Below are positions 24,387 to 32,660 of a stretch of 49,915 bases of DNA, in pieces (within the stretch, counting starts at the first letter, position 1; each line of letters opens with the position of its first letter). The DNA comes from a virus (Duplodnaviria; Caudoviricetes), in the IMG/VR virus record IMGVR_UViG_3300037761_000215, positions 1 to 49,915 of that record; one strand, given 5' to 3'. Both the position numbers and the translations under genes were made by a program. Below the pieces are notes generated by a model, which was not told the DNA's origin, made no database searches, and was given only the letters and a program-made list of their open reading frames with translations.

Positions 24387-24652
24387 GCGCGGCCACGTAC
24401 CGGAAGCGGCCGGTGGAGATCCAGGCCGTCCAGTGGACCGGCAGCAACCCGGACCAAATCGCGGCCCTGGCCGGAGACGAGTGGATCAAGAGCGTGGTGC
24501 CCAACCCACCAGGCGACGACCTGATCGTGGACACCCTGGAGGGTGAGATGCGCTGCCGCCCCGGCTGGTGGCTGATCCGCGGTCTGCGTGGCGAGTTCTA
24601 CCCGTGCGACCCGGACATCTTTGCCGCGTCGTACGAGCTGGTGGCGCCGTGA
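24383..24652 (+). CDS. Conserved phage protein (PGDYG-like)
   Basis: 'YRKRPVEIQAVQWTG...TLEG...GEFYPCDPDIFAASYE'. Confidence 0.8.
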   Translation: MSAATYRKRPVEIQAVQWTGSNPDQIAALAGDEWIKSVVPNPPGDDLIVDTLEGEMRCRPGWWLIRGLRGEFYPCDPDIFAASYELVAP

Positions 24653-24882
24653 GCCCGGCCACCCGTTGGCGGATCGCGTTCCTCGGCCTGACCGGGCTGG
24701 TGATCGGCATGGAGCTGTTCGCCGCCTGCGACAGCAGCGCCGATACCGAACCGTGGACCACCCTGATCGTGCGGCACGTCCCCGGTGAGCTGACCGCCGC
24801 GCTGATCGGCGCGCTCAGCCTGTGGGTTCCAATTCACTTCTGGCTGGCCTACCGGCGCAAGCGTCGGCGGGCCGCGCGATAA
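24649..24882 (+). CDS. Small two-TM membrane protein
   Basis: GTGA overlap; two hydrophobic segments and a basic tail. Confidence 0.7.
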   Translation: MSPATRWRIAFLGLTGLVIGMELFAACDSSADTEPWTTLIVRHVPGELTAALIGALSLWVPIHFWLAYRRKRRRAAR

Positions 24883-24906
24883 TAGACCCGAACAGAGGAG
24901 AGCAAC

Positions 24907-25116
24907 ATGCGTAAGCTGCTCATCATCGTGGCGCTGGTCGCCGCCGGCGTCGGCGCCGCGGCCAGCCCGGCACAGGCCGACCCGATCACCTGCCCACCCG
25001 GCCAGGAGGCCACGGCCAACCCCAGCCAGGGTGGGTGGACGTGTGTCAACAGCGGCGGGAACACCAACGAGTCGGAAGACCCGCGCCCACCGAACGCCGA
25101 CAAGAAGAAGTTCTAG
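24907..25116 (+). CDS. Small secreted peptide with two Cys
   Basis: RBS GAGGAG; signal peptide ending AQA. Confidence 0.75.
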   Translation: MRKLLIIVALVAAGVGAAASPAQADPITCPPGQEATANPSQGGWTCVNSGGNTNESEDPRPPNADKKKF

Positions 25117-25577
25117 TCATCATCGGGGCGCGCAGCGAAGGCGCGCAGCATGTTCTCCGCCCGGGTCACCGGCTCAAGATGACCTGGGCGGAGGCATAGC
25201 CTGGATCGGCAGCCACGTTTCCACACGTGATCGAGGTCCATCCCTTCGGGGATCGGCCCCACTTCCAACTCATACGCCACTCGGTGTACCAATAGGTTCT
25301 GCCACTTCCCGTCGACCCAGCCAACGATGGTGCCGTAACCCTTGGCTGTAGCGCCGGGCCAGATCCAACAACCGTCCGCCGTTCGATCTATCCGTGCCCA
25401 CAGTCGGTCGGCAAGGTCGCGGCGCTGGTAGTCCTGGCGTGAGGTGGGGCGGCGGTAGTGTGCTCCACCAGCTGGATCGCCATGTCGCTGGAACCGGCGG
25501 TAGTGTCGACGGCAGAGTCGTCGGACTTGGATCAGGATAGGACGGTCGCAAGCGTCCACGCAGCATTCGTCCACCAC
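25113..25577 (-). CDS. Free-standing HNH homing endonuclease
   Basis: N-terminal Zn finger 'C...C...LCRRHY', 'CWIW', 'VHRVAYE', 'DH...C...C..P.HLEPVTRAEN'; TATAAT 7 nt upstream of GTG. Confidence 0.9.
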   Translation of the reverse strand: MVDECCVDACDRPILIQVRRLCRRHYRRFQRHGDPAGGAHYRRPTSRQDYQRRDLADRLWARIDRTADGCWIWPGATAKGYGTIVGWVDGKWQNLLVHRVAYELEVGPIPEGMDLDHVWKRGCRSRLCLRPGHLEPVTRAENMLRAFAARPDDD

Positions 25578-25584
25578 GGCTTCG

Positions 25585-25590
25585 ATTATA
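25585..25590 (-). promoter_or_regulatory. -10 box TATAAT for a leaderless HNH transcript
   Basis: attata on + strand; perfect consensus is rare at this GC content. Confidence 0.6.
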
Positions 25591-25709
25591 CAGAACCCGA
25601 ACAAGGACAAGGGCGACTTCCGCCCCTGACCCAACGTTCGTTGGCAGTTGCGGCCTGACCTATAACCGAACAGCCGTTCCGTTGCACCCCGGGGGTGCGG
25701 CGGGTGATG

Positions 25710-25743
25710 GGAGCCCTCCCGGGTGACAGCCCGGGAGGGCTCC
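25710..25743. terminator. Terminator between late and leftward operons
   Basis: Perfect 14-bp stem ggagccctcccggg/cccgggagggctcc followed by ttcgt. Confidence 0.8.
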
Positions 25744-25772
25744 TTCGTCGTGCCCGGGATTCAGGGGTGCGG

Positions 25773-26222
25773 TCAGCCGGCCGCGTCGCGGCACTGGGCA
25801 GCGTTGTCCCGGTAGTCAGACGAGCCGATCTGCTCGGTCAGCTCTTCCACGTCCGCAGTGATCGTGTTCAGCTTGTCGGTCAGGTCCTCGACCGCCGTAG
25901 CGTCGTAGGCCATCCCAGCCTCGATCCCGTCGTAGATCATCATGGGCATTTCGGCGGCGATGTCGGCGAAGTCGGCGCTGAACCCCATCAGGTCCTCGGC
26001 GTTGTTCAGGGCCTCGAGGCAGACATCCGGGACGTCGGAGACGGTGACCACGGTCGCAGGTGGGCTGGTGTCGGTGGTGGCCTCGGCGCCCTCACCGCTG
26101 CCGCCGATGCCGATGCCGATGAGCAGGGAGGCCAGGCCGGTGAAGGTGACCACCAGCCACGCCGGTGGCCGGTGCCTCACCGGTGTTACCGGCTGCGGCT
26201 GGGTGGGTGCGTTGATGTCCAT
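25773..26222 (-). CDS. Membrane-anchored acidic helical protein
   Basis: TM segment 'LASLLIGIGIGG'; two Cys in the extracellular part. Confidence 0.75.
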   Translation of the reverse strand: MDINAPTQPQPVTPVRHRPPAWLVVTFTGLASLLIGIGIGGSGEGAEATTDTSPPATVVTVSDVPDVCLEALNNAEDLMGFSADFADIAAEMPMMIYDGIEAGMAYDATAVEDLTDKLNTITADVEELTEQIGSSDYRDNAAQCRDAAG

Positions 26223-26275
26223 GATCTACTCTCATATCTGCCCGGGTTGCAGCCCGGGCTGGTCGGGTGGCGGGT

Positions 26276-26333
26276 CTGTTCCGCCACTCGGCCCCCGCCG
26301 CCCCTCGGGGCGGTTGGGACCGGGCAGCGTCAG
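26276..26333 (-). repeat. Intergenic hairpin repeat, copy 1
   Basis: Shares a 20-nt and a 17-nt identical block with 26666-26720. Confidence 0.9.
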
Positions 26334-26641
26334 GATGCAGGCCCGACCATGGCGTTGCAGATGGCGTCCCACCGGGCGCGCTCGGTCGCCTCGTCCAGCC
26401 GAGGGATCGGCCGGTCCGGCTGGCAGCCGAGCGCCACGAAGTGACGGAGCTGGATCACCGGAGTGGCTGTCCACTCCCGCGCCCACACCACCCCCGCGGT
26501 GTCGGTCCACTCGACCAGGTTCAGGCCGTAGTGGTCCCACCCCTCAGACATCGGGTGGATGATGGCGCCGCCATGCCGCCCGCCGGACAGGCGGAGCGGG
26601 CCACCCTGTAGGGCCTCTAGCAGCTCGTAGCTGTTGTACAT
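26330..26641 (-). CDS. Hypothetical protein
   Basis: RBS GAAGGAG 6 nt before ATG. Confidence 0.75.
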   Translation of the reverse strand: MYNSYELLEALQGGPLRLSGGRHGGAIIHPMSEGWDHYGLNLVEWTDTAGVVWAREWTATPVIQLRHFVALGCQPDRPIPRLDEATERARWDAICNAMVGPAS

Positions 26642-26665
26642 GGTCATCTCCTTCGAGTGGGCGGG

Positions 26666-26720
26666 CTGTCCGCCACTCGGCCCCCGCCCGCCGGAGCGGG
26701 TGAGGACCGGGCAGCGTCAG
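26666..26720 (-). repeat. Intergenic hairpin repeat, copy 2
   Basis: See copy 1; both begin at a TGA stop codon. Confidence 0.9.
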
Positions 26721-27163
26721 CCCAGCTCGGTCACGGTGCTCGGCCGCTCGTCCGCCTCGTTCCGCAAGGCCAGGCGGATCGCGGCCTCAAGGTCCTGGGC
26801 GCCAGCCTTGGCCCACACGTGCAGTGTGCGGGTCTGAGCGCCGGCCGGCGGCCGGTGGTCGACCAGGTACTCGAAGCGGTCATGCTCCGGCCCGGGCGGG
26901 GAGTCCAGCTTGATGCGGCCGGACAGCCGGATGCCGTTGCCCAGGTCGCGGGGTGGTACGCCCTGGCGGCGGCGGTCGTACTCTGCGTGCAGTTGGCTGA
27001 TGATCTCCGGCCCGCCGGCCACGAACACGGCGCGGCCGTCCAGCTCGAAGGCGCCGGTCTCGCCGGCGGCCAGGGACCGGGCGTGCTCGGCGGCGGTGGC
27101 CGGCCGGATCTGCTCGCCGGTGACGTAGTCGGTCAGGGTGCCGTAGTCGGTGGTCTCGCTCAT
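26717..27163 (-). CDS. Hypothetical protein
   Basis: RBS GAAGGAG. Confidence 0.75.
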   Translation of the reverse strand: MSETTDYGTLTDYVTGEQIRPATAAEHARSLAAGETGAFELDGRAVFVAGGPEIISQLHAEYDRRRQGVPPRDLGNGIRLSGRIKLDSPPGPEHDRFEYLVDHRPPAGAQTRTLHVWAKAGAQDLEAAIRLALRNEADERPSTVTELG

Positions 27164-27217
27164 GATGGTCTCCTTCGGTGGTAGGTCTGTCAGTGTGTCT
27201 GGCAGGTGGGGCGGGGG

Positions 27218-27475
27218 TTAGCTGATGGCGATCAGGTGCTTATCCTGGCCGCCGTGGTGGATCGCGCACTCACGGTCCCAGTCGCTGAGCATCTTCTGGT
27301 TCGATTCGGGGATCAAGTTGGCGCCGGGCTGGCGGGCGAGGCTGCGGAGCGCGGCGTCGACCAGCTCCCGGTTGCCGCCCACCTGAGGGCGGAGGTCGCC
27401 GAGCCCGACCAGTTGCCCGGGCTGGGTGGTGAGGTGGCGGTAGGCGCACCGGATCCGGTCTTCGTAGGTCTTCAT
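27218..27475 (-). CDS. Small protein, possibly winged-helix
   Basis: RBS GAGAGGA; 'VGLGDLR...VDAALRSL...LIPESNQK.L...DR..A...GG'. Confidence 0.7.
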   Translation of the reverse strand: MKTYEDRIRCAYRHLTTQPGQLVGLGDLRPQVGGNRELVDAALRSLARQPGANLIPESNQKMLSDWDRECAIHHGGQDKHLIAIS

Positions 27476-27479
27476 GATC

Positions 27480-27880
27480 GTCCTCTCGTTCCTGCGTCCT
27501 GCGGTTGCGTGGCCGGCCGGTGTCGGCTCCCGCCCCCCGGTGGCCCCGTCAGGCCTGGGGGACTCGGCGCGCCCCGCTGACGGGCGGGTGACCGGTGATC
27601 CGGTGTGCTCGGCACCCTTCCGGGTGCCTCTCTCGTAGCCTGGCCTGCCGGCCGGCCGCGTAACCGCAGGTGGTGGGTCCTGGTGCCACGGGGGGGCCGA
27701 TCGGATATGCCTCCTGCGGCCAGCCCGAGCATGTCGGGTGTCGCGGTAGGAGTGCGGGGAAGCGATTCGGCCCCCTCGAAGCACCAGGGGTGCTTCTTCT
27801 TTGTCCTCCCGGTTCCGGCTTCCCCTTCCGGGGCCCTGTGGTTTCTCCTGAGCTTTTGTGTTCTCTGTTTTCTTGTACCT
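27480..27880 (-). ncRNA. Putative large structured ncRNA or 5' leader
   Basis: No credible ORF; 23-bp closing stem, GGAA tetraloops, complementary loop pair; promoter immediately upstream. Confidence 0.65.
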
Positions 27881-27882
27881 TA

Positions 27883-27910
27883 AGCGTATCACGTAAACTC
27901 CCGGGTGCAA
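27883..27910 (-). promoter_or_regulatory. Leftward sigma70-like promoter
   Basis: TTGCAC-N16-TACGCT with extended TGn. Confidence 0.65.
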
Positions 27911-27974
27911 GCCCCACAGCTCATCCTTTCGGGTGGTTCACGTGATACGCGCGGTCAGGGTTGGCGTGATACGC
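27884..27974. promoter_or_regulatory. Three copies of CGTGATACGC (putative RHH operators)
   Basis: 27884-27893 (minus), 27941-27950 and 27965-27974 (plus); two of them overlap -10 boxes. Confidence 0.75.
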
Positions 27975-27981
27975 TGGTGGG

Positions 27982-28185
27982 ATGGACGCGACACCGAAGC
28001 GGCGCCCGGGCCGGCCGACCGCCGGCGGCACCCCACCCGCCCGGGCCATCCGGGTGCCGGATGACCTGTGGGAGGCGGCCCGCAAGGTGGCGGCCGATGA
28101 CGGCGAGACGCTGCCGGAGGTGATCCGCCGGTTCCTGGTCTCCTACGTCCGCCGGCGCCAGCGCAAGGCAGGAGCGGGGACATGA
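27982..28185 (+). CDS. Ribbon-helix-helix DNA-binding protein
   Basis: 'GRP...RAIRVPDDLWEAARKVAADDGETLPEVIRRFL'; leaderless, TACGCT 6 nt before ATG. Confidence 0.85.
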   Translation: MDATPKRRPGRPTAGGTPPARAIRVPDDLWEAARKVAADDGETLPEVIRRFLVSYVRRRQRKAGAGT

Positions 28186-28631
28186 TCACGCTGGTGGAGT
28201 TTCTGCTCGCCCGGCTGGACGAGGACGCGCGGAAGGCGCGGGCCGCCGAGACCGGTCGGCGCTGGGAAGCGCTGACACGTGCCGATAGTGGGCCTCAGGT
28301 GCGCGTCGGCGATGGTGATATGGACGACCCGGGACCGGAGTGGCGCCGGGAAGTTGTTCACCCGATGTGGCATTGCGATGACGAGTTGGACGGCTGTCCC
28401 GATGTGGCGCGCGGCTGGATCGCCGAGGCTGAGCACATCGCCCGGCATGACCCGGCGTGGGTGCTGGCCGAGGTGGCGGCCAAGCGGCGGATCGTGCGAC
28501 TCTGCGAGGCAGGTATCGACCCCAAGGCGCCAGCCACCCCGGGAGTCCGCGCTGGCTATCGCGCCATCCTCGGCTACCTCGCCCTGCCCTACGCCGAGCA
28601 CCCGGATTACCAGGAGGAGTGGAAGCCGTGA
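28182..28631 (+). CDS. DUF6221-like actinophage protein
   Basis: 'EFLLARLDED...HIARHDPA.VLAEVAAKRRI...LALPYAEHPDYQEEW'. Confidence 0.8.
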   Translation: MITLVEFLLARLDEDARKARAAETGRRWEALTRADSGPQVRVGDGDMDDPGPEWRREVVHPMWHCDDELDGCPDVARGWIAEAEHIARHDPAWVLAEVAAKRRIVRLCEAGIDPKAPATPGVRAGYRAILGYLALPYAEHPDYQEEWKP

Positions 28632-28709
28632 CGGGCGAGCCCACCGCCGGCCCGCCACCACCGGCCGGACAGGCGACCCCGACCGGGTGAGCCAAGAGAG
28701 GATCAACTC

Positions 28710-28931
28710 ATGCAGACCATGAGGATCGGAATGAAAGTGCGGGCCGGGCCTGACGAGGTGTTCGCCCCAGATGCGTTCGACAGCCAGATCGGGAAGACCG
28801 TGCCGGTGCGTCTGCCGGGCCTGTCTCGACGCGGGAGGGTGGTTGGGGCACAGGTGAGCCCGGATGGCCGGAGTTGCACGCTTACGGTGGAGGTCCCGGA
28901 CATCCGTCCCTTTGCCGACCTGGCTTGGTGA
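28710..28931 (+). CDS. Hypothetical protein
   Basis: RBS GAGAGGA. Confidence 0.65.
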   Translation: MQTMRIGMKVRAGPDEVFAPDAFDSQIGKTVPVRLPGLSRRGRVVGAQVSPDGRSCTLTVEVPDIRPFADLAW

Positions 28932-29015
28932 GCCGGCTCACAGCAACCCGAGCCGCTCTCGGATCGTTGACCCGGTACCCCCTCGTCCGTGGCGGGAGTG
29001 AGGAGCCCCGCCCCC

Positions 29016-29288
29016 ATGCCATCCCTACGTGCTGTGCTGTACATCCCTCACGGTACCGACCAGACCCTTTGGCAGCATGAGTGCGCGGCGCTGTGCCGGG
29101 CACGCGGCTGGCTGGTGGCCGCGGTCACCGCGGATGCGGTGACCGCCCGGCGGCTGATACTCGCCGGGGCGGCGGAACTGGTGGTGGTGGCCCGGCCGCG
29201 TCATCTGGCCGCGGTGGCGCTGGCGGTGGCGGTGGTCACCGACCCGCCGGGCCGGGACCGGCGGGGCCGGCCCCGGCGGCTGCGATGA
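29016..29288 (+). CDS. Degenerate resolvase-N-terminal-like small protein
   Basis: 'RAVLYI...QHECAALCRARGW.V...RLILAG.AELVVVAR..HL'; no YxRxS motif. Confidence 0.55.
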   Translation: MPSLRAVLYIPHGTDQTLWQHECAALCRARGWLVAAVTADAVTARRLILAGAAELVVVARPRHLAAVALAVAVVTDPPGRDRRGRPRRLR

Positions 29289-29565
29289 GCGCGCGTTCCT
29301 GTCGGCTGGCTGTGATCAGCTTCTGCGCCCGCTGGTAGGTGCCGAGCCCGGCCGCTACCGCCACCGCCTCCAGCGACAGCCCATCCCTGGCCTCCGCCAG
29401 AGCCGCGCCGCGCAGCCGCTTGACCTCGGAGACCAGGGCGTCAAGCAGCGCCTGCTCTCTGGTCAGGGCGTGGTAGCGGCGCATCGGGTCCGGCTCGGTC
29501 AGCAGGTCGCCTAGCAGGCTATCCCGCAACGTCTCCACCTCGTGACGTTCCGCCTCGTACATCAC
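29236..29565 (-). CDS. Small HTH-like protein
   Basis: RBS AAGGAGGA; 'GLSLEAVAVAAGLGTYQRAQKL'. Confidence 0.65.
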   Translation of the reverse strand: MMYEAERHEVETLRDSLLGDLLTEPDPMRRYHALTREQALLDALVSEVKRLRGAALAEARDGLSLEAVAVAAGLGTYQRAQKLITASRQERALIAAAGAGPAGPGPAGR

Positions 29566-30425
29566 TCCTCCTTACGCCGCACCGTTGCGGCGAGCTGATT
29601 TAGTGCTGCGATGTAACGGTTACGCGCTTCCGCCCTCGGGCTGGTCTTGCCGCACTCCCACCGGGAGACCTGTGCAACATCCACTCCCAGGTGTTGGGCG
29701 ATCGCCGTCATCGTCACCGCAGCCTGCTGGCGCAACTTGCGCCACTGCGGCGGCGCTGCATCGACAACTGGCACCCAGCCAGGTGTCGGGGGCGACGTAC
29801 GCCGCGCTTTCTCGGACGCGCGATGTCGCCACCGCTCCCGTTCCTTTCGGCGCTGCTCCTCCAGTTCCTCGGGTGACATCTGCGTCCGGCGTCGGCGTTT
29901 CCGCTCTCGTTCGCTGCGCCGGTGCTCCTCAGTGCTGAGACTGCGGCGGGCGCGGCCGTACGCCGCAGTGACGGCCTGGCAGTCGCCGCAGTGACAGCCG
30001 TACCGCACATACCCCTGTCGCGTCCCATGCCGAGGATCTCCCGCAGGCAGTCCGGAGGCGCGTTCCCGTCGCCGGTGTTGGTAATCCCGGGCTCGCTTCG
30101 CCTCGCATTGCTCGCAATGGCAGCCTGCCGCCAACCCCTCCGACGTGCCGTGGAGCGGTTCGATCTCCCCGGCCTTGATCATCCTGTACCGGTCGCGGAG
30201 ATACCGGCGCTGGTGGACTCGGCTACGCTCGTGCGCCAGAAGATCGGCAAGGTCTTCCCCCGTGAGTTGGACCAGTCGCGACACCCCATCCAGGGTCATG
30301 CCCCCGGCCAGCATGTCGCAGGTCGCTTCGGCCAGGTCAGTACGCGCCCGCTGCGCCCACCGGCGCGTGTCCCGCTCGATACGGGCCAGCTCGGCAAGCC
30401 GTTGAGCCGAGCCCTCCTCAGTCAT
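29562..30425 (-). CDS. Multi-domain regulator: two HGT..CxCxxC knuckles + C-terminal XRE HTH
   Basis: 'HGTSEG..AGCHCEQC', 'HGTRQGY..YGCHCGDC', 'AIAQHLGVDVAQVSRWECGKTSP'. Confidence 0.75.
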   Translation of the reverse strand: MTEEGSAQRLAELARIERDTRRWAQRARTDLAEATCDMLAGGMTLDGVSRLVQLTGEDLADLLAHERSRVHQRRYLRDRYRMIKAGEIEPLHGTSEGLAAGCHCEQCEAKRARDYQHRRRERASGLPAGDPRHGTRQGYVRYGCHCGDCQAVTAAYGRARRSLSTEEHRRSERERKRRRRTQMSPEELEEQRRKERERWRHRASEKARRTSPPTPGWVPVVDAAPPQWRKLRQQAAVTMTAIAQHLGVDVAQVSRWECGKTSPRAEARNRYIAALNQLAATVRRKEE

Positions 30426-30747
30426 CCTCGTCCTCGATCACGTAGTTGACGATCTCGACCGGGCCGATCAGCTCGGCGTGGCAGTTGACCATCAGCGGCT
30501 CGCCGTCGCCGCCGCGCTGGCCCAGCAGGTCGCCGGTGACGATGTACACGGGCCGGTCGAACAGGCCGGTCACCACCCCGCCCATGTACTCGGCGTCAGA
30601 GCGGAGCATGATCGAGATGACGCTGTGGTCCTGGGTGGTCCACTCGGCGCGGTAGACCGAGATGCCCGGCTCTGGCTCGTCCAGCTCGGCGTTCCAGGAG
30701 GCACCTTCGGCGGAGAGGTCTCCGAAGCGGATGTACATCTCGGTCAT
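30418..30747 (-). CDS. Hypothetical acidic protein (leaderless)
   Basis: 'YIRFGD...EPGISVY...GGDGEPL'; ATG 6 nt after the -10 box. Confidence 0.75.
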   Translation of the reverse strand: MTEMYIRFGDLSAEGASWNAELDEPEPGISVYRAEWTTQDHSVISIMLRSDAEYMGGVVTGLFDRPVYIVTGDLLGQRGGDGEPLMVNCHAELIGPVEIVNYVIEDEDD

Positions 30748-30753
30748 GCCACC

Positions 30754-30783
30754 ACTGTACACCCTATGGGGTGTGGGTTGCAA
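30754..30783 (-). promoter_or_regulatory. Promoter TTGCAA-N18-TACAGT with palindromic operator
   Basis: ACACCC-tatg-GGGTGT at 30759-30774 lies in the spacer. Confidence 0.7.
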
Positions 30784-30792
30784 GGGTGGGCG

Positions 30793-31614
30793 TCACCTAT
30801 TCGGGTGGACCGGGTCGCCGACCAGCGCCGGCAGCCGCCCGACCGCGGCCGCCAGCCGGGGTGAGGCGACCCGCACGTACCCGAGCGTGGTGGAGATCGA
30901 CGCGTGGCCCATCAGCTCCCGCACCTCCTCCAACCCGGCGCCGGAGGCCACCAGGCTGGTGCCGTACCAGTGCCTCAACATGTGCGCGGTCACGTCCACC
31001 CCCAACCCGAGGTAGCAGCGGCGGAGCTCGGCGGAGACCCGGTCGCGCCACGGATCCCGCCCGGGTGCCACCGGACCGGCCGGCAGGCCCTCGACCGCGG
31101 CCCAGACCAGCGGGTGGGCAGGCACCCGCCGCAGCTTGGCGCCCTTCCCGTGTAGCGTGACCCGTTCGGGTGACAGGTGCTCGCGCCGGAGGCGGGTGAT
31201 CTCGATGCACCTCGCGCCGGCGTAGGCGGCGACGACGGACCACATGTGGTACGGCTCGGGGGCGTGCTGCAGGATGACCGCGAGCTGCTGGTCGCTGCAC
31301 GGGTTGGGTAGGCCTGGGCGGACCCGGGGGCGGGGCACCAGCGCACCCTCGTCCCGGCTGATGTGCCCCACGGCGGCCGCCCACGAGGTGAGCCCGCGGA
31401 TCGCCGCGTGGTAGGTGCGGCGGGTGGCGGCGCTGGGGTAGCGGCCGAGCCATTCGGCGAGCTCGGCGGCGGTGGCGGTGGGCACCCCGCAGGGCAGCTC
31501 CCGGTGGGCTGCCCTCAACGCGATGCCGTAGGTGCGGATCGTCTTCGGGCTGCGGCCGAGGGTGGCGAGGTGGGCGAGGTAGTCCTCGAGGATGTCGGCG
31601 TCGGGGGTGGTCAT
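30793..31614 (-). CDS. int: Tyrosine integrase, short Xer-like, no arm-binding domain
   Basis: 'AGARCIEI' (R), 'GKGAK' (K), 'HMLRH' (HxxR), 'LMGH...TTLGY' (H, Y); 273 aa. Confidence 0.93.
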   Translation of the reverse strand: MTTPDADILEDYLAHLATLGRSPKTIRTYGIALRAAHRELPCGVPTATAAELAEWLGRYPSAATRRTYHAAIRGLTSWAAAVGHISRDEGALVPRPRVRPGLPNPCSDQQLAVILQHAPEPYHMWSVVAAYAGARCIEITRLRREHLSPERVTLHGKGAKLRRVPAHPLVWAAVEGLPAGPVAPGRDPWRDRVSAELRRCYLGLGVDVTAHMLRHWYGTSLVASGAGLEEVRELMGHASISTTLGYVRVASPRLAAAVGRLPALVGDPVHPNR

Positions 31615-31620
31615 CTCAGG

Positions 31621-32136
31621 TTATCGGCTGGTGGCGCTGTGTGGTGCCGGGGCTGGCGGGTGGGAGAGTCGGGCCGGGCGGCTGATGCCGGCGGCGGTCG
31701 GTGCGGGTACGCGGCTCATGCTTCTGGGGGAGCCGGCGGGTCGGACGGATGGGCGAATGTGGTGGCTGTCCGGCTGGGTAGGGGTGGCTGTGGTGGTGGC
31801 GATGGGATAGCTTCCCGTTAACCTGCGGCGGCGGGTCAAGATCCGCGGCTGCTGGGCCGCCGCCCGGGCGGACTCACCCTCGGGGATCAGTTCACGCGGG
31901 TGGATACCGAGCGCCGCCGCGATCGCCGCCAGGTCTTCCACGTCGAACAGGATCTCGCCGGTCATCCTCCGGGAGAGGTACGCCTGCTTCATGCCGGCCA
32001 GCTCGGCGAGCTTCACCGCGGTCAGGTCGTGCCAGATCATCAGGGACTTGATCTGCTTGACAACCCGATCGTGGAGGCGCTGCTCCTGGCTGGTCGGTGC
32101 CATGGTCTCATCCATACCGGTCATCTTTACTCGCAT
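31621..32136 (-). CDS. Immunity repressor (XRE HTH) with low-complexity C-terminal tail
   Basis: 'LTAVKLAELAGMKQAYLSRRMTG...DLAAIAAALGI'; divergent from cro. Start uncertain (32136, 32124, 32115 or 32103). Confidence 0.85.
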   Translation of the reverse strand: MRVKMTGMDETMAPTSQEQRLHDRVVKQIKSLMIWHDLTAVKLAELAGMKQAYLSRRMTGEILFDVEDLAAIAAALGIHPRELIPEGESARAAAQQPRILTRRRRLTGSYPIATTTATPTQPDSHHIRPSVRPAGSPRSMSRVPAPTAAGISRPARLSHPPAPAPHSATSR

Positions 32137-32228
32137 TACGAGTGCTGCGGTAGTCCACCGAACGGCTGAATCTCGCTGGGGGAGTTGACAGCATCTCGCA
32201 TCGCGATTACCGTCCCTGCTATGCGAGA
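32129..32228. promoter_or_regulatory. Lysis/lysogeny switch: rightward promoter and operators
   Basis: TTGACA(32185)-N17-TACCGT(32208); operator-like CTCGCATnnCGAG variants at 32129, 32171, 32194 and (minus) 32214-32228. Confidence 0.8.
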
Positions 32229-32484
32229 TGAAAATGCCCCCCGCGAGATCGCCAAGCGTGTTCGACTCGCAATCCGCGTGTCGGGGCTGACCCAGCTTGA
32301 GGTGGCCCGCCGGCTGGGCTGGCCGCAGCAGCGGCTGAACCGTCGGCTCACCGAAGCGGACTACGCGGCACCCTTCGAGGCGGCCGAGCTGGCCCAGGTA
32401 GCGGGCGTGCTCGGAGTGCCCCCGTCGCAGTTCCTGCTCGATCCGGCGGAGCCCACCGCCGAGCCGGCAGGTGACGCGCGATGA
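32221..32484 (+). CDS. Cro-like XRE protein (leaderless)
   Basis: 'GLTQLEVARRLGWPQQRLNRRL'; ATG 7 nt after the -10 box. Confidence 0.85.
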   Translation: MRDENAPREIAKRVRLAIRVSGLTQLEVARRLGWPQQRLNRRLTEADYAAPFEAAELAQVAGVLGVPPSQFLLDPAEPTAEPAGDAR

Positions 32485-32660
32485 GCGAGAACAGCCTCAC
32501 CTTCCCCTGCCCGCTGTGCAGCGTGGTCGTGACCGTCATCGTCGACAACCTCAACGTTCAGGTCACCCCACCGGAGGCGGGTAAGCAGCTCAAGCGCTCC
32601 ACCATCACCGCGACCGGCATCGGCGTGACCAACCACGTCCACGGACGGAGCAACCACTGA
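32481..32660 (+). CDS. Small CxxC protein
   Basis: ATGA and TGATG overlaps; 'FPCPLC'. Confidence 0.6.
   Translation: MSENSLTFPCPLCSVVVTVIVDNLNVQVTPPEAGKQLKRSTITATGIGVTNHVHGRSNH

Follow-up and report, generated by a model that had tools for sequence, protein, structure and literature searches.

To our knowledge, no mechanism has been assigned to the abundant early non-coding RNAs of actinobacterial phages. Elsewhere among phages, the put RNA of HK022 spans about 70 nt with two fixed stems, the pRNA of phi29 has a domain that is closed by a long helix and bears two complementary loops, and the leaders of T7 and lambda carry RNase III sites. In the mycobacteriophages L5, D29 and StarStuff, the region that separates the early Pleft promoter from the first gene has been described as giving rise to an abundant, stable and processed RNA of about 500 nt (PMC5712189). 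Here, a predicted leader RNA of an uncultured phage is compared with these systems; the window refers to the whole stretch of DNA that was analysed, which is the whole 49.9-kb virus record (49,915 nt).

The Pleft RNAs of these Cluster A phages resemble the element in that, in a temperate phage of actinobacteria, a regulated leftward promoter is separated from the first gene by about 400-500 gene-free bases (PMC5712189), and such a stretch behind a regulated early promoter is found here, with the promoter and its regulator predicted. The L5 region also folds beyond its shuffled versions (z -4.41). It shares no sequence likeness with the element (best blastn E 0.053 over 17 nt; no model match) and contains 19% U, against 7% here. 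The Pleft species share one 5' end, whereas a release of separate domains is proposed for the element, and the available parts of the source describe no swappable inserts, whereas those of the element are swapped (PMC5712189). The ornate RNAs GOLLD, ROOL and OLE are likewise large folded RNAs with no assigned function, and GOLLD and ROOL occur in phages and prophages and have kissing loops; their bridges are supported by covariation in the part of the source at hand (PMC12286853), whereas the loop contact of the element is not, seven close copies giving low power. Furthermore, the element has no Rfam match, its domains are smaller and exchangeable, and a tRNA gene is absent from this genome (ARAGORN found neither tRNA nor tmRNA), one relative having tRNAs nearby.

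With the E. coli RNase III stems the element shares stems of about two helical turns with 0-3 mismatches that enclose a domain (PMC6212723), and with HK022 put, as the accessible part of its source presents it (PMC9378689), a folded RNA just downstream of an early phage promoter. It differs from put in leader length (260-490 nt among the carriers), in varying inserts and in having relatives without any leader. No description of the element was found in the literature, and six dataset numbers and four motifs gave no match in the parts searched of a catalogue of viral candidate RNAs, in the remainder of which the element may be included (PMC10690425). The element is real and uncatalogued; in its proposed working it resembles a leader RNA of the Pleft type with RNase III-sized stems, and it is not placed in any catalogued family.

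Genome setting, promoter and strand

The phage is temperate; the genes for its integrase and repressor form a pair at 30.8-32.5 kb, and those for recombination and replication lie further on; the terminase, portal, protease, capsid and tail genes lie on the plus strand. The element is the head of a leftward operon of short genes without assigned function, located between the lysis region and the integrase (Table 1). An actinomycete host is likely, because among 151 genomes of the family to which G001 (Micromonospora) belongs, 12 encode relatives of the putative lysis protein (35-59% identity), one of these genomes being flagged as unpublished and given no weight. Family and homologue searches assigned no function to the first two operon proteins, and the slot of the first operon gene holds different genes among relatives. 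The divergent 67-aa protein itself has no Pfam or PHROG match, and its sole other homologue (63% identity) carries PF01402, which we take to be RHH_1; the ATG of its gene lies 7 nt after a TACGCT hexamer.

Table 1. Coordinates of the predicted leader and of the features around it (window positions)
Feature	Position	Strand	Evidence or remark
First gene of leftward accessory operon, 85 aa, no family	27218..27475	-	ATG at 27475
Predicted leader, 401 nt, non-coding	27476..27876	-	From predicted start to ATG at 27475
Domain 2 type A, 173 nt, four inner arms, closed by 23-bp stem 27648-27670 with 27498-27520	27498..27670	-	Seven copies
Hairpin B, GGCC/GGCC stem, loop TGACGG 27546-27551	27542..27555	-	Loop invariant in 7/7
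Hairpin A, CCCGC/GCGGG stem, loop 27578-27583 in two orientations	27573..27588	-	Alignment of copies
ACCGG-ATCA-CCGGT hairpin	27591-27604	-	Sequence
GGCACCC-GGAA-GGGTGCC hairpin	27611-27628	-	Sequence
Domain 1, 110 nt, closed by 22-bp stem 27767-27788 with 27679-27700	27679..27788	-	Covariation
8-bp local hairpin	27778..27796	-	Predicted to sequester 5' arm of domain 1
5' module with CCCC-GGAA-GGGG hairpin (27822-27833)	27806..27853	-	Variant common to window and L222
Predicted leftward promoter, -35 TTGCAC 27905-27910, -10 TACGCT 27883-27888	27883..27910	-	Comparison with relatives
10-bp word, three copies 27884-27893, 27941-27950, 27965-27974	27884..27974	.	Two copies cover -10 boxes of divergent promoters
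Divergent 67-aa gene, likely ribbon-helix-helix regulator, predicted leaderless	27982..28185	+	Homologue evidence

Some short elements of the operon recur beyond this locus. An intergenic repeat of about 80 nt, which starts at a stop codon, is present on the minus strand at 26645-26721 and 26255-26335; it has two alternative predicted folds with a variable inner hairpin, counts 11 copies in the window and nine related loci, leader-free phages included, and might serve as a terminator or a processing site, or as a point of recombination at which genes are swapped. Domain 2 type A was likened to this repeat by eye, and the idea was dropped as nhmmer gave no match. The operon-end hairpin (25710-25743) has a perfect 14-bp stem and the loop CTGTCA in 8/9 copies, and a ribosome-site cassette (27158-27197) recurs before different first or second genes in relatives.

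The leftward promoter was missed by a consensus promoter scan. Similar TTG...TAnnnT boxes precede 11 of the 14 leaders, the other three not being caught by the pattern used. In two leader-free relatives (L199 and L193) the ATG stands at the seventh base after the same -10 box, which places the start near 27876, and transcription very probably begins at about this position from a host-type promoter. The copies of the 10-bp word are likely operators for the divergent small regulator, by which the promoter would be autoregulated. Most relatives, whether or not they have a leader and whichever regulator they carry, contain a palindromic word centred on CCG-WW-(C/A)GG some 10-20 bases upstream of the -35 box (about 27921-27935 in the window); its centre flips between TT and AA among these phages, and it is possibly the site of a host transcription factor.

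Although a 230-codon frame is open at 27218-27910, its TTG coincides with the -35 box and so precedes the predicted start site, and in relatives the region is read in other frames or contains stops, which supports a non-coding reading. The leftward, folded and non-coding RNA proposed in an earlier note on this DNA is supported by the promoter comparison, by the GNRA-compatible loops and by the frames of the relatives. With regard to the strand, one-sided variants in the type A insert, read leftward, give G.U at five sites and A.C at one, and the tetraloop varies between GGAA and GGGA, both GNRA. The closing stems are uninformative in this respect because A.C and G.U variants are about equal (seven sites each). 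A leftward RNA is favoured by the wobble bias of the insert, the GNRA-compatible loops, the A-rich linkers and the promoter, and the leader RNA very probably represents the leftward strand; the promoter scan found no rightward promoter in 24500-32500. The leader contains 7.0% U, and the lowest-U 400-nt window of the genome on either strand falls here. Of the bases predicted to be unpaired, 45% are A and 6% are U, and across the 11 leaders for which this was determined the shares range over 41-50% for A and 5-9% for U.

Predicted fold, modules and possible processing of the leader

The hairpins, the 23-bp stem and the complementary loops named in the earlier note were each found where it had placed them. 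Its irregular hairpin domain (27692-27775) is present with too small an extent, the real unit being the whole of domain 1 with its own 22-bp stem, and its 8-bp hairpin exists, but not as a separate element beside that domain, since it overlaps the 5' arm of the 22-bp stem. Rfam 15 gave no match at gathering score in the whole window, four matches at E 3.6-8 in 27000-28200, all far under the cut-offs, and three tRNA matches and nothing else in 12 related loci; in agreement with the earlier note, no family matches the element. In an 86-kb relative (L219), domain 1 of the leader is preceded, at a distance of about 370-590 bases, by three tRNA matches (positions 1911-2130).

The fold of 27480-27880 is more stable than that of shuffled sequences on the minus strand (z -4.86) and on the plus strand (z -5.18), and none of 100 shuffles was as good on either. 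This signal comes mostly from the closing stems, and the inserts alone are not unusually stable (z -1.37 for that of the second domain, and -1.28). The plus strand folds better (-227 vs -194 kcal/mol) because A.C mismatches of the minus strand, of which the 23-bp stem has two, are read there as G.U. The modelled secondary structure of the leader is considered highly probable.

Variation among the copies differs from module to module. The 5' hairpin of L222 reads CCGC-GGAA-GCGG, a compensatory change relative to the window, and 11 other leaders have a three-way junction as their 5' module, each of whose helices shows two-sided changes. In domain 1, 10 of 37 predicted pairs have two-sided changes among six copies; its arm alleles are mixed between copies, the arms being perfect in 2/11. 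The seven copies of domain 2 type A are 89.7-97.1% identical and vary too little to be informative on covariation: none of 56 RNAalifold pairs has a two-sided change, and the covariation score equals that of the shuffle control. One stem pair of hairpin B is C-G in four copies and U.G in three. Two-sided stem changes can arise by template switching in one step, without stepwise selection, according to the available part of PMC8794818, and on that account covariation in the stems counts for less.

In the 8-bp hairpin the outer half of the first arm is bound by the linker, and this hairpin and the 22-bp stem are alternatives that exclude each other. An equivalent hairpin of at least 4 bp is found in 11 of the 13 leaders with an intact first domain (at least 6 bp in nine) and tracks the allele of the arm. 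The 8-bp hairpin is present in all four snapshots predicted for 100-190 nt and has given way at 200 nt, once the last bases of domain 1 are made; most simply it would be a folding intermediate. Before the second domain, no linker-arm hairpin beats a shuffled control (12 leaders, lowest p 0.13). In the predicted fold the ribosome site is left unpaired right after the last stem, and the start codon of the first gene is 22 nt past that stem; in all leaders the last stems end 18-111 nt ahead of the start codon.

The earlier note also suggested that RNase III excises a domain at its closing stem. Stem length is compatible with this proposal, since a near-continuous helix of about 22 bp is found in all four stem types (22-25 bp), which begin with CCT (CTT in three type B copies) and end with AGG, but the proposal has no support from sequence. 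With the pair table of PMC6212723 (E. coli), neither a signature or enriched pair pattern nor a common register was found (2/48 tests at p<0.05), and the best registers score within the range of real RNase III sites and no better than shuffled pairs on this E. coli matrix with 12-position scoring, from which the actinobacterial preference may differ. The accessible part of a source on Streptomyces RNase III (PMC4681348) offers no usable rule for cut prediction. A tRNA-like 3' NCCA follows the stems in type B copies and in two domain 1 copies and is absent in the rest. Trimming by RNase J and PNPase is the general basis for the idea of exonuclease survival, and paired ends could protect the domains from it.

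Module exchange and the complementary loops

Protein and pattern scans of IMG/VR revealed such leaders in 13 other uncultured phage contigs, with a plan of promoter, 5' module and then one or two stem-closed domains. In the 14 leaders the slot is occupied by type A in seven, by type B in five and by a single third type in two, and domain 1 has a short insert in six and a longer, different insert inside the same stem in five; in L123 the 5' module is lost and the 5' half of domain 1 deleted, the 3' half being kept. Divergent genes, promoter sequences and first ORFs differ among the carriers. None of the four carriers that are at least 90% complete matches the terminase, portal or capsid of this phage, and among all five carriers compared the terminase and portal match in one (35% and 31% identity) and the capsid in none. 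Because those four carriers lack matching terminase, portal and capsid, genome comparison shows that the cassette moves between unlike phages, and the same finding argues against a pRNA role. The analogy to phi29 pRNA drawn in the earlier note is disfavoured: complementary loops together with a long closing helix are the likeness, in this genome only, the element lies far from the head genes, the carriers have no common terminase, portal or capsid, and the loops are kept in just 4/7 copies.

The type A copies (90-97%) are about as alike as some shared genes (up to 96%), and their conservation may reflect recent exchange. The leader always comes first after the promoter, in one orientation, and no copies were found elsewhere in the window or in three carrier genomes, each of which, searched whole, has one copy of domain 2 type A. 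A miniature inverted-repeat transposon was rejected on the grounds of one site, one orientation and flanks that repeat on both sides in just 2/7 copies.

Cultured phages, plasmids and the actinomycete genomes sampled yielded no member of the leader family, these negatives resting on samples. Annotated phages gave one 49-nt match at E 0.5 and plasmids one 61-nt match at E 0.03, neither a homologue. In 401 genomes of the family of G001, eight short matches (27-91 nt, E 3.8e-6 or weaker) were treated as chance, and the four of them checked with the model gave no match; the domain 2 type A model had no match in 151 genomes, nor had the type B leader in 401 genomes of the order. All 45 of 45 hits of a genome motif scan were chance, as were the three loci from metagenome scans (0 and 3), and a 14-base viral pattern occurred at no fewer than 119 loci, with no homologue among them.

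That the two loops of domain 2 type A are perfect complements in the window, as the earlier note had it, was confirmed, and the match is non-random: 6-bp complementarity arose in 0/700 shuffled and refolded inserts, with p 0.00015 and 0.00095 under other nulls, all post hoc. The kissing pair did not hold as a conserved feature. Loop A is CCGTCA in the window, L001, L003 and L210, and TGACGG, its exact inversion, in L123, L124 and L200, where both loops consequently read TGACGG in domains that are otherwise intact; no alternative partner is present elsewhere in the leaders of these three. In the homologues collected, the loop-loop helix is 71% paired without two-sided change, and it was in domain 1 and the 5' module that two-sided changes were found. 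The state of loop A occurs in all four combinations with 4/8 other two-state sites, forming a mosaic. One inversion interconverts the two states, either of which could be ancestral, and loop inversions are a documented mutation class in the part of PMC8794818 at hand. Since one loop inversion turns identical loops into complementary ones, a single genome with a perfect kiss does not count as evidence of function.

In the third insert type (two relatives), a similar 5-bp hairpin lies beside a GGCC-closed arm, and the adjacent loops are different but have five complementary bases (19/700 shuffles, p 0.027, post hoc); the type B insert reaches 4 bp only (p 0.07, post hoc). Loop-loop pairing in some domains is plausible, and it would not be required for function. 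Loop A has a 10-base match to a 16S locus, where 13 matches of 9-12 bases occur over both strands, this one included; rRNA mimicry by loop A was rejected, the match being at chance level.

Proposed function and alternative explanations

The comparison establishes the sequence and its modules; it shows that these are exchanged between phages whose regulators, first genes and head genes are unlike, and that the kiss is not conserved. The modules seem to behave like genes and not like a control element of one gene. Given this gene-like swapping, the independence from neighbours, the dispensability and the Pleft precedent, our tentative reading, to which we give a little less than an even chance, is an exchangeable early non-coding RNA cassette whose closed domains would, in the manner of the mycobacteriophage Pleft RNAs, remain as stable decoys that act in trans. 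Leftward transcription from about 27876 would produce stem-closed RNA domains, in which the local hairpin would hold the first arm until its partner arm is made and each 22-25-bp stem would pair both ends of its domain. Nucleases would cut or trim in the A-rich linkers, or RNase III would cut the stem, leaving RNAs of about 110 and 170 nt with protected ends, and once an early burst had passed, the promoter would be turned down by the small divergent regulator. Our guess is that the domains serve as trans-acting decoys for an RNA-binding protein of the host, which would probably be a factor of defence or decay, with loop-loop pairing as an optional stabilising contact and not the core of the function. 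A bolder and unlikely extension is that the slot behind the autoregulated early promoter accepts interchangeable domains, sealed by a CCU...AGG stem and released nuclease-proof with an optional kiss, each insert type neutralising a different host defence or RNA-binding protein; at the RNA level, it would correspond to a variable slot for anti-defence genes.

Control of its own operon in cis is less probable than the decoy cassette, yet deserves serious weight: the stems would stop 5' exonucleases or mark a stabilising cut, or the nascent RNA would aid read-through as HK022 put RNA does. The fixed place and orientation behind the promoter with one copy per genome in 3/3 carriers, the ribosome site unpaired just past the last stem and the conserved alternative hairpin, a switch-like step, would all suit such control, and the invariant loop B can also pair at 6/6 positions (one G.U) with the loop of the operon-end 14-bp hairpin, which alone among the eight other hexaloop hairpins scanned allows this (post hoc). 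That operon-end loop is, however, the same in two of the three type B carriers having it, though type B has no loop B; unrelated inserts of 110-175 nt exceed the needs of a stabiliser; and among ten loci found via the neighbouring gene three have no leader, two of which (L193 and L199) keep the same intergenic hairpin repeat of the operon, an observation that also bears on put-type read-through. It is quite unlikely that the palindromes matter as DNA or not at all, being inverted repeats built and homogenised by template switching and carried as near-neutral cargo or recombination points. The mixed domain 1 arm alleles, the exactly inverted and mosaic loop A, the flipping centre of the promoter palindrome and a plus strand that folds as well or better are what such an origin would leave behind, but it does not sit well with wobble pairs biased to one strand in the inserts, loop variation that stays GNRA-compatible, linkers rich in A and poor in U, compensatory changes in the short inner helices, or a fixed place right behind the promoter with no copies elsewhere in the genomes searched.

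A kissing-loop RNA, in which the contact is the function, through an oligomer (a cage like those of GOLLD and ROOL, or a pRNA-like ring) or a fold switch, would require the inverted copies to be recent losses of function and is very unlikely. The complementarity beyond chance, the different but complementary loops of the third insert type and an alternative 8-bp helix between the loops costing only 3.4 kcal/mol fit it, and natural RNAs of less than 200 nt can form cages and oligomers according to the available part of 10.64898/2026.07.01.735769; yet the kiss is broken in 3/7 otherwise intact copies with no covariation, the alternative helix has a probability of 0.0015, type B reaches only 4 bp between its loops, and the carriers have no common packaging genes. 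Least credible, and highly improbable, is that the 27218-27910 frame is translated through the element, or that the functional RNA is the plus strand ending at hairpin 27778-27796. The frame stays open for 230 codons and a scan flags that hairpin on the plus strand, with a T-rich tail, as terminator-like, but frame differences among relatives, the TTG inside the -35 box and the lack of any family match count against the former, and against the latter the lack of a rightward promoter and the coordinates, by which the 22-bp stem would be completed on the plus strand before the hairpin and pre-empt it.

The family provides natural controls for the decoy cassette and its alternatives: it offers three types of insert, relatives that have no leader, one copy that is half deleted, and a domain found both with and without the kissing pair. 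If trans-acting, the domains would be candidate RNA anti-defence factors, and the portable closing stem could stabilise RNAs in actinomycetes.

Two further genes of the operon region deserve mention. An HNH endonuclease gene (25113-25634) lies behind its own promoter-like sequence; it is present in L195, absent at the same place in L192 and L194, and likely mobile. A 149-aa protein (25773-26222), with a hydrophobic segment and an acidic remainder, matches phrog_34894 and has close homologues in L124 and L231; our guess is that it acts in superinfection exclusion.
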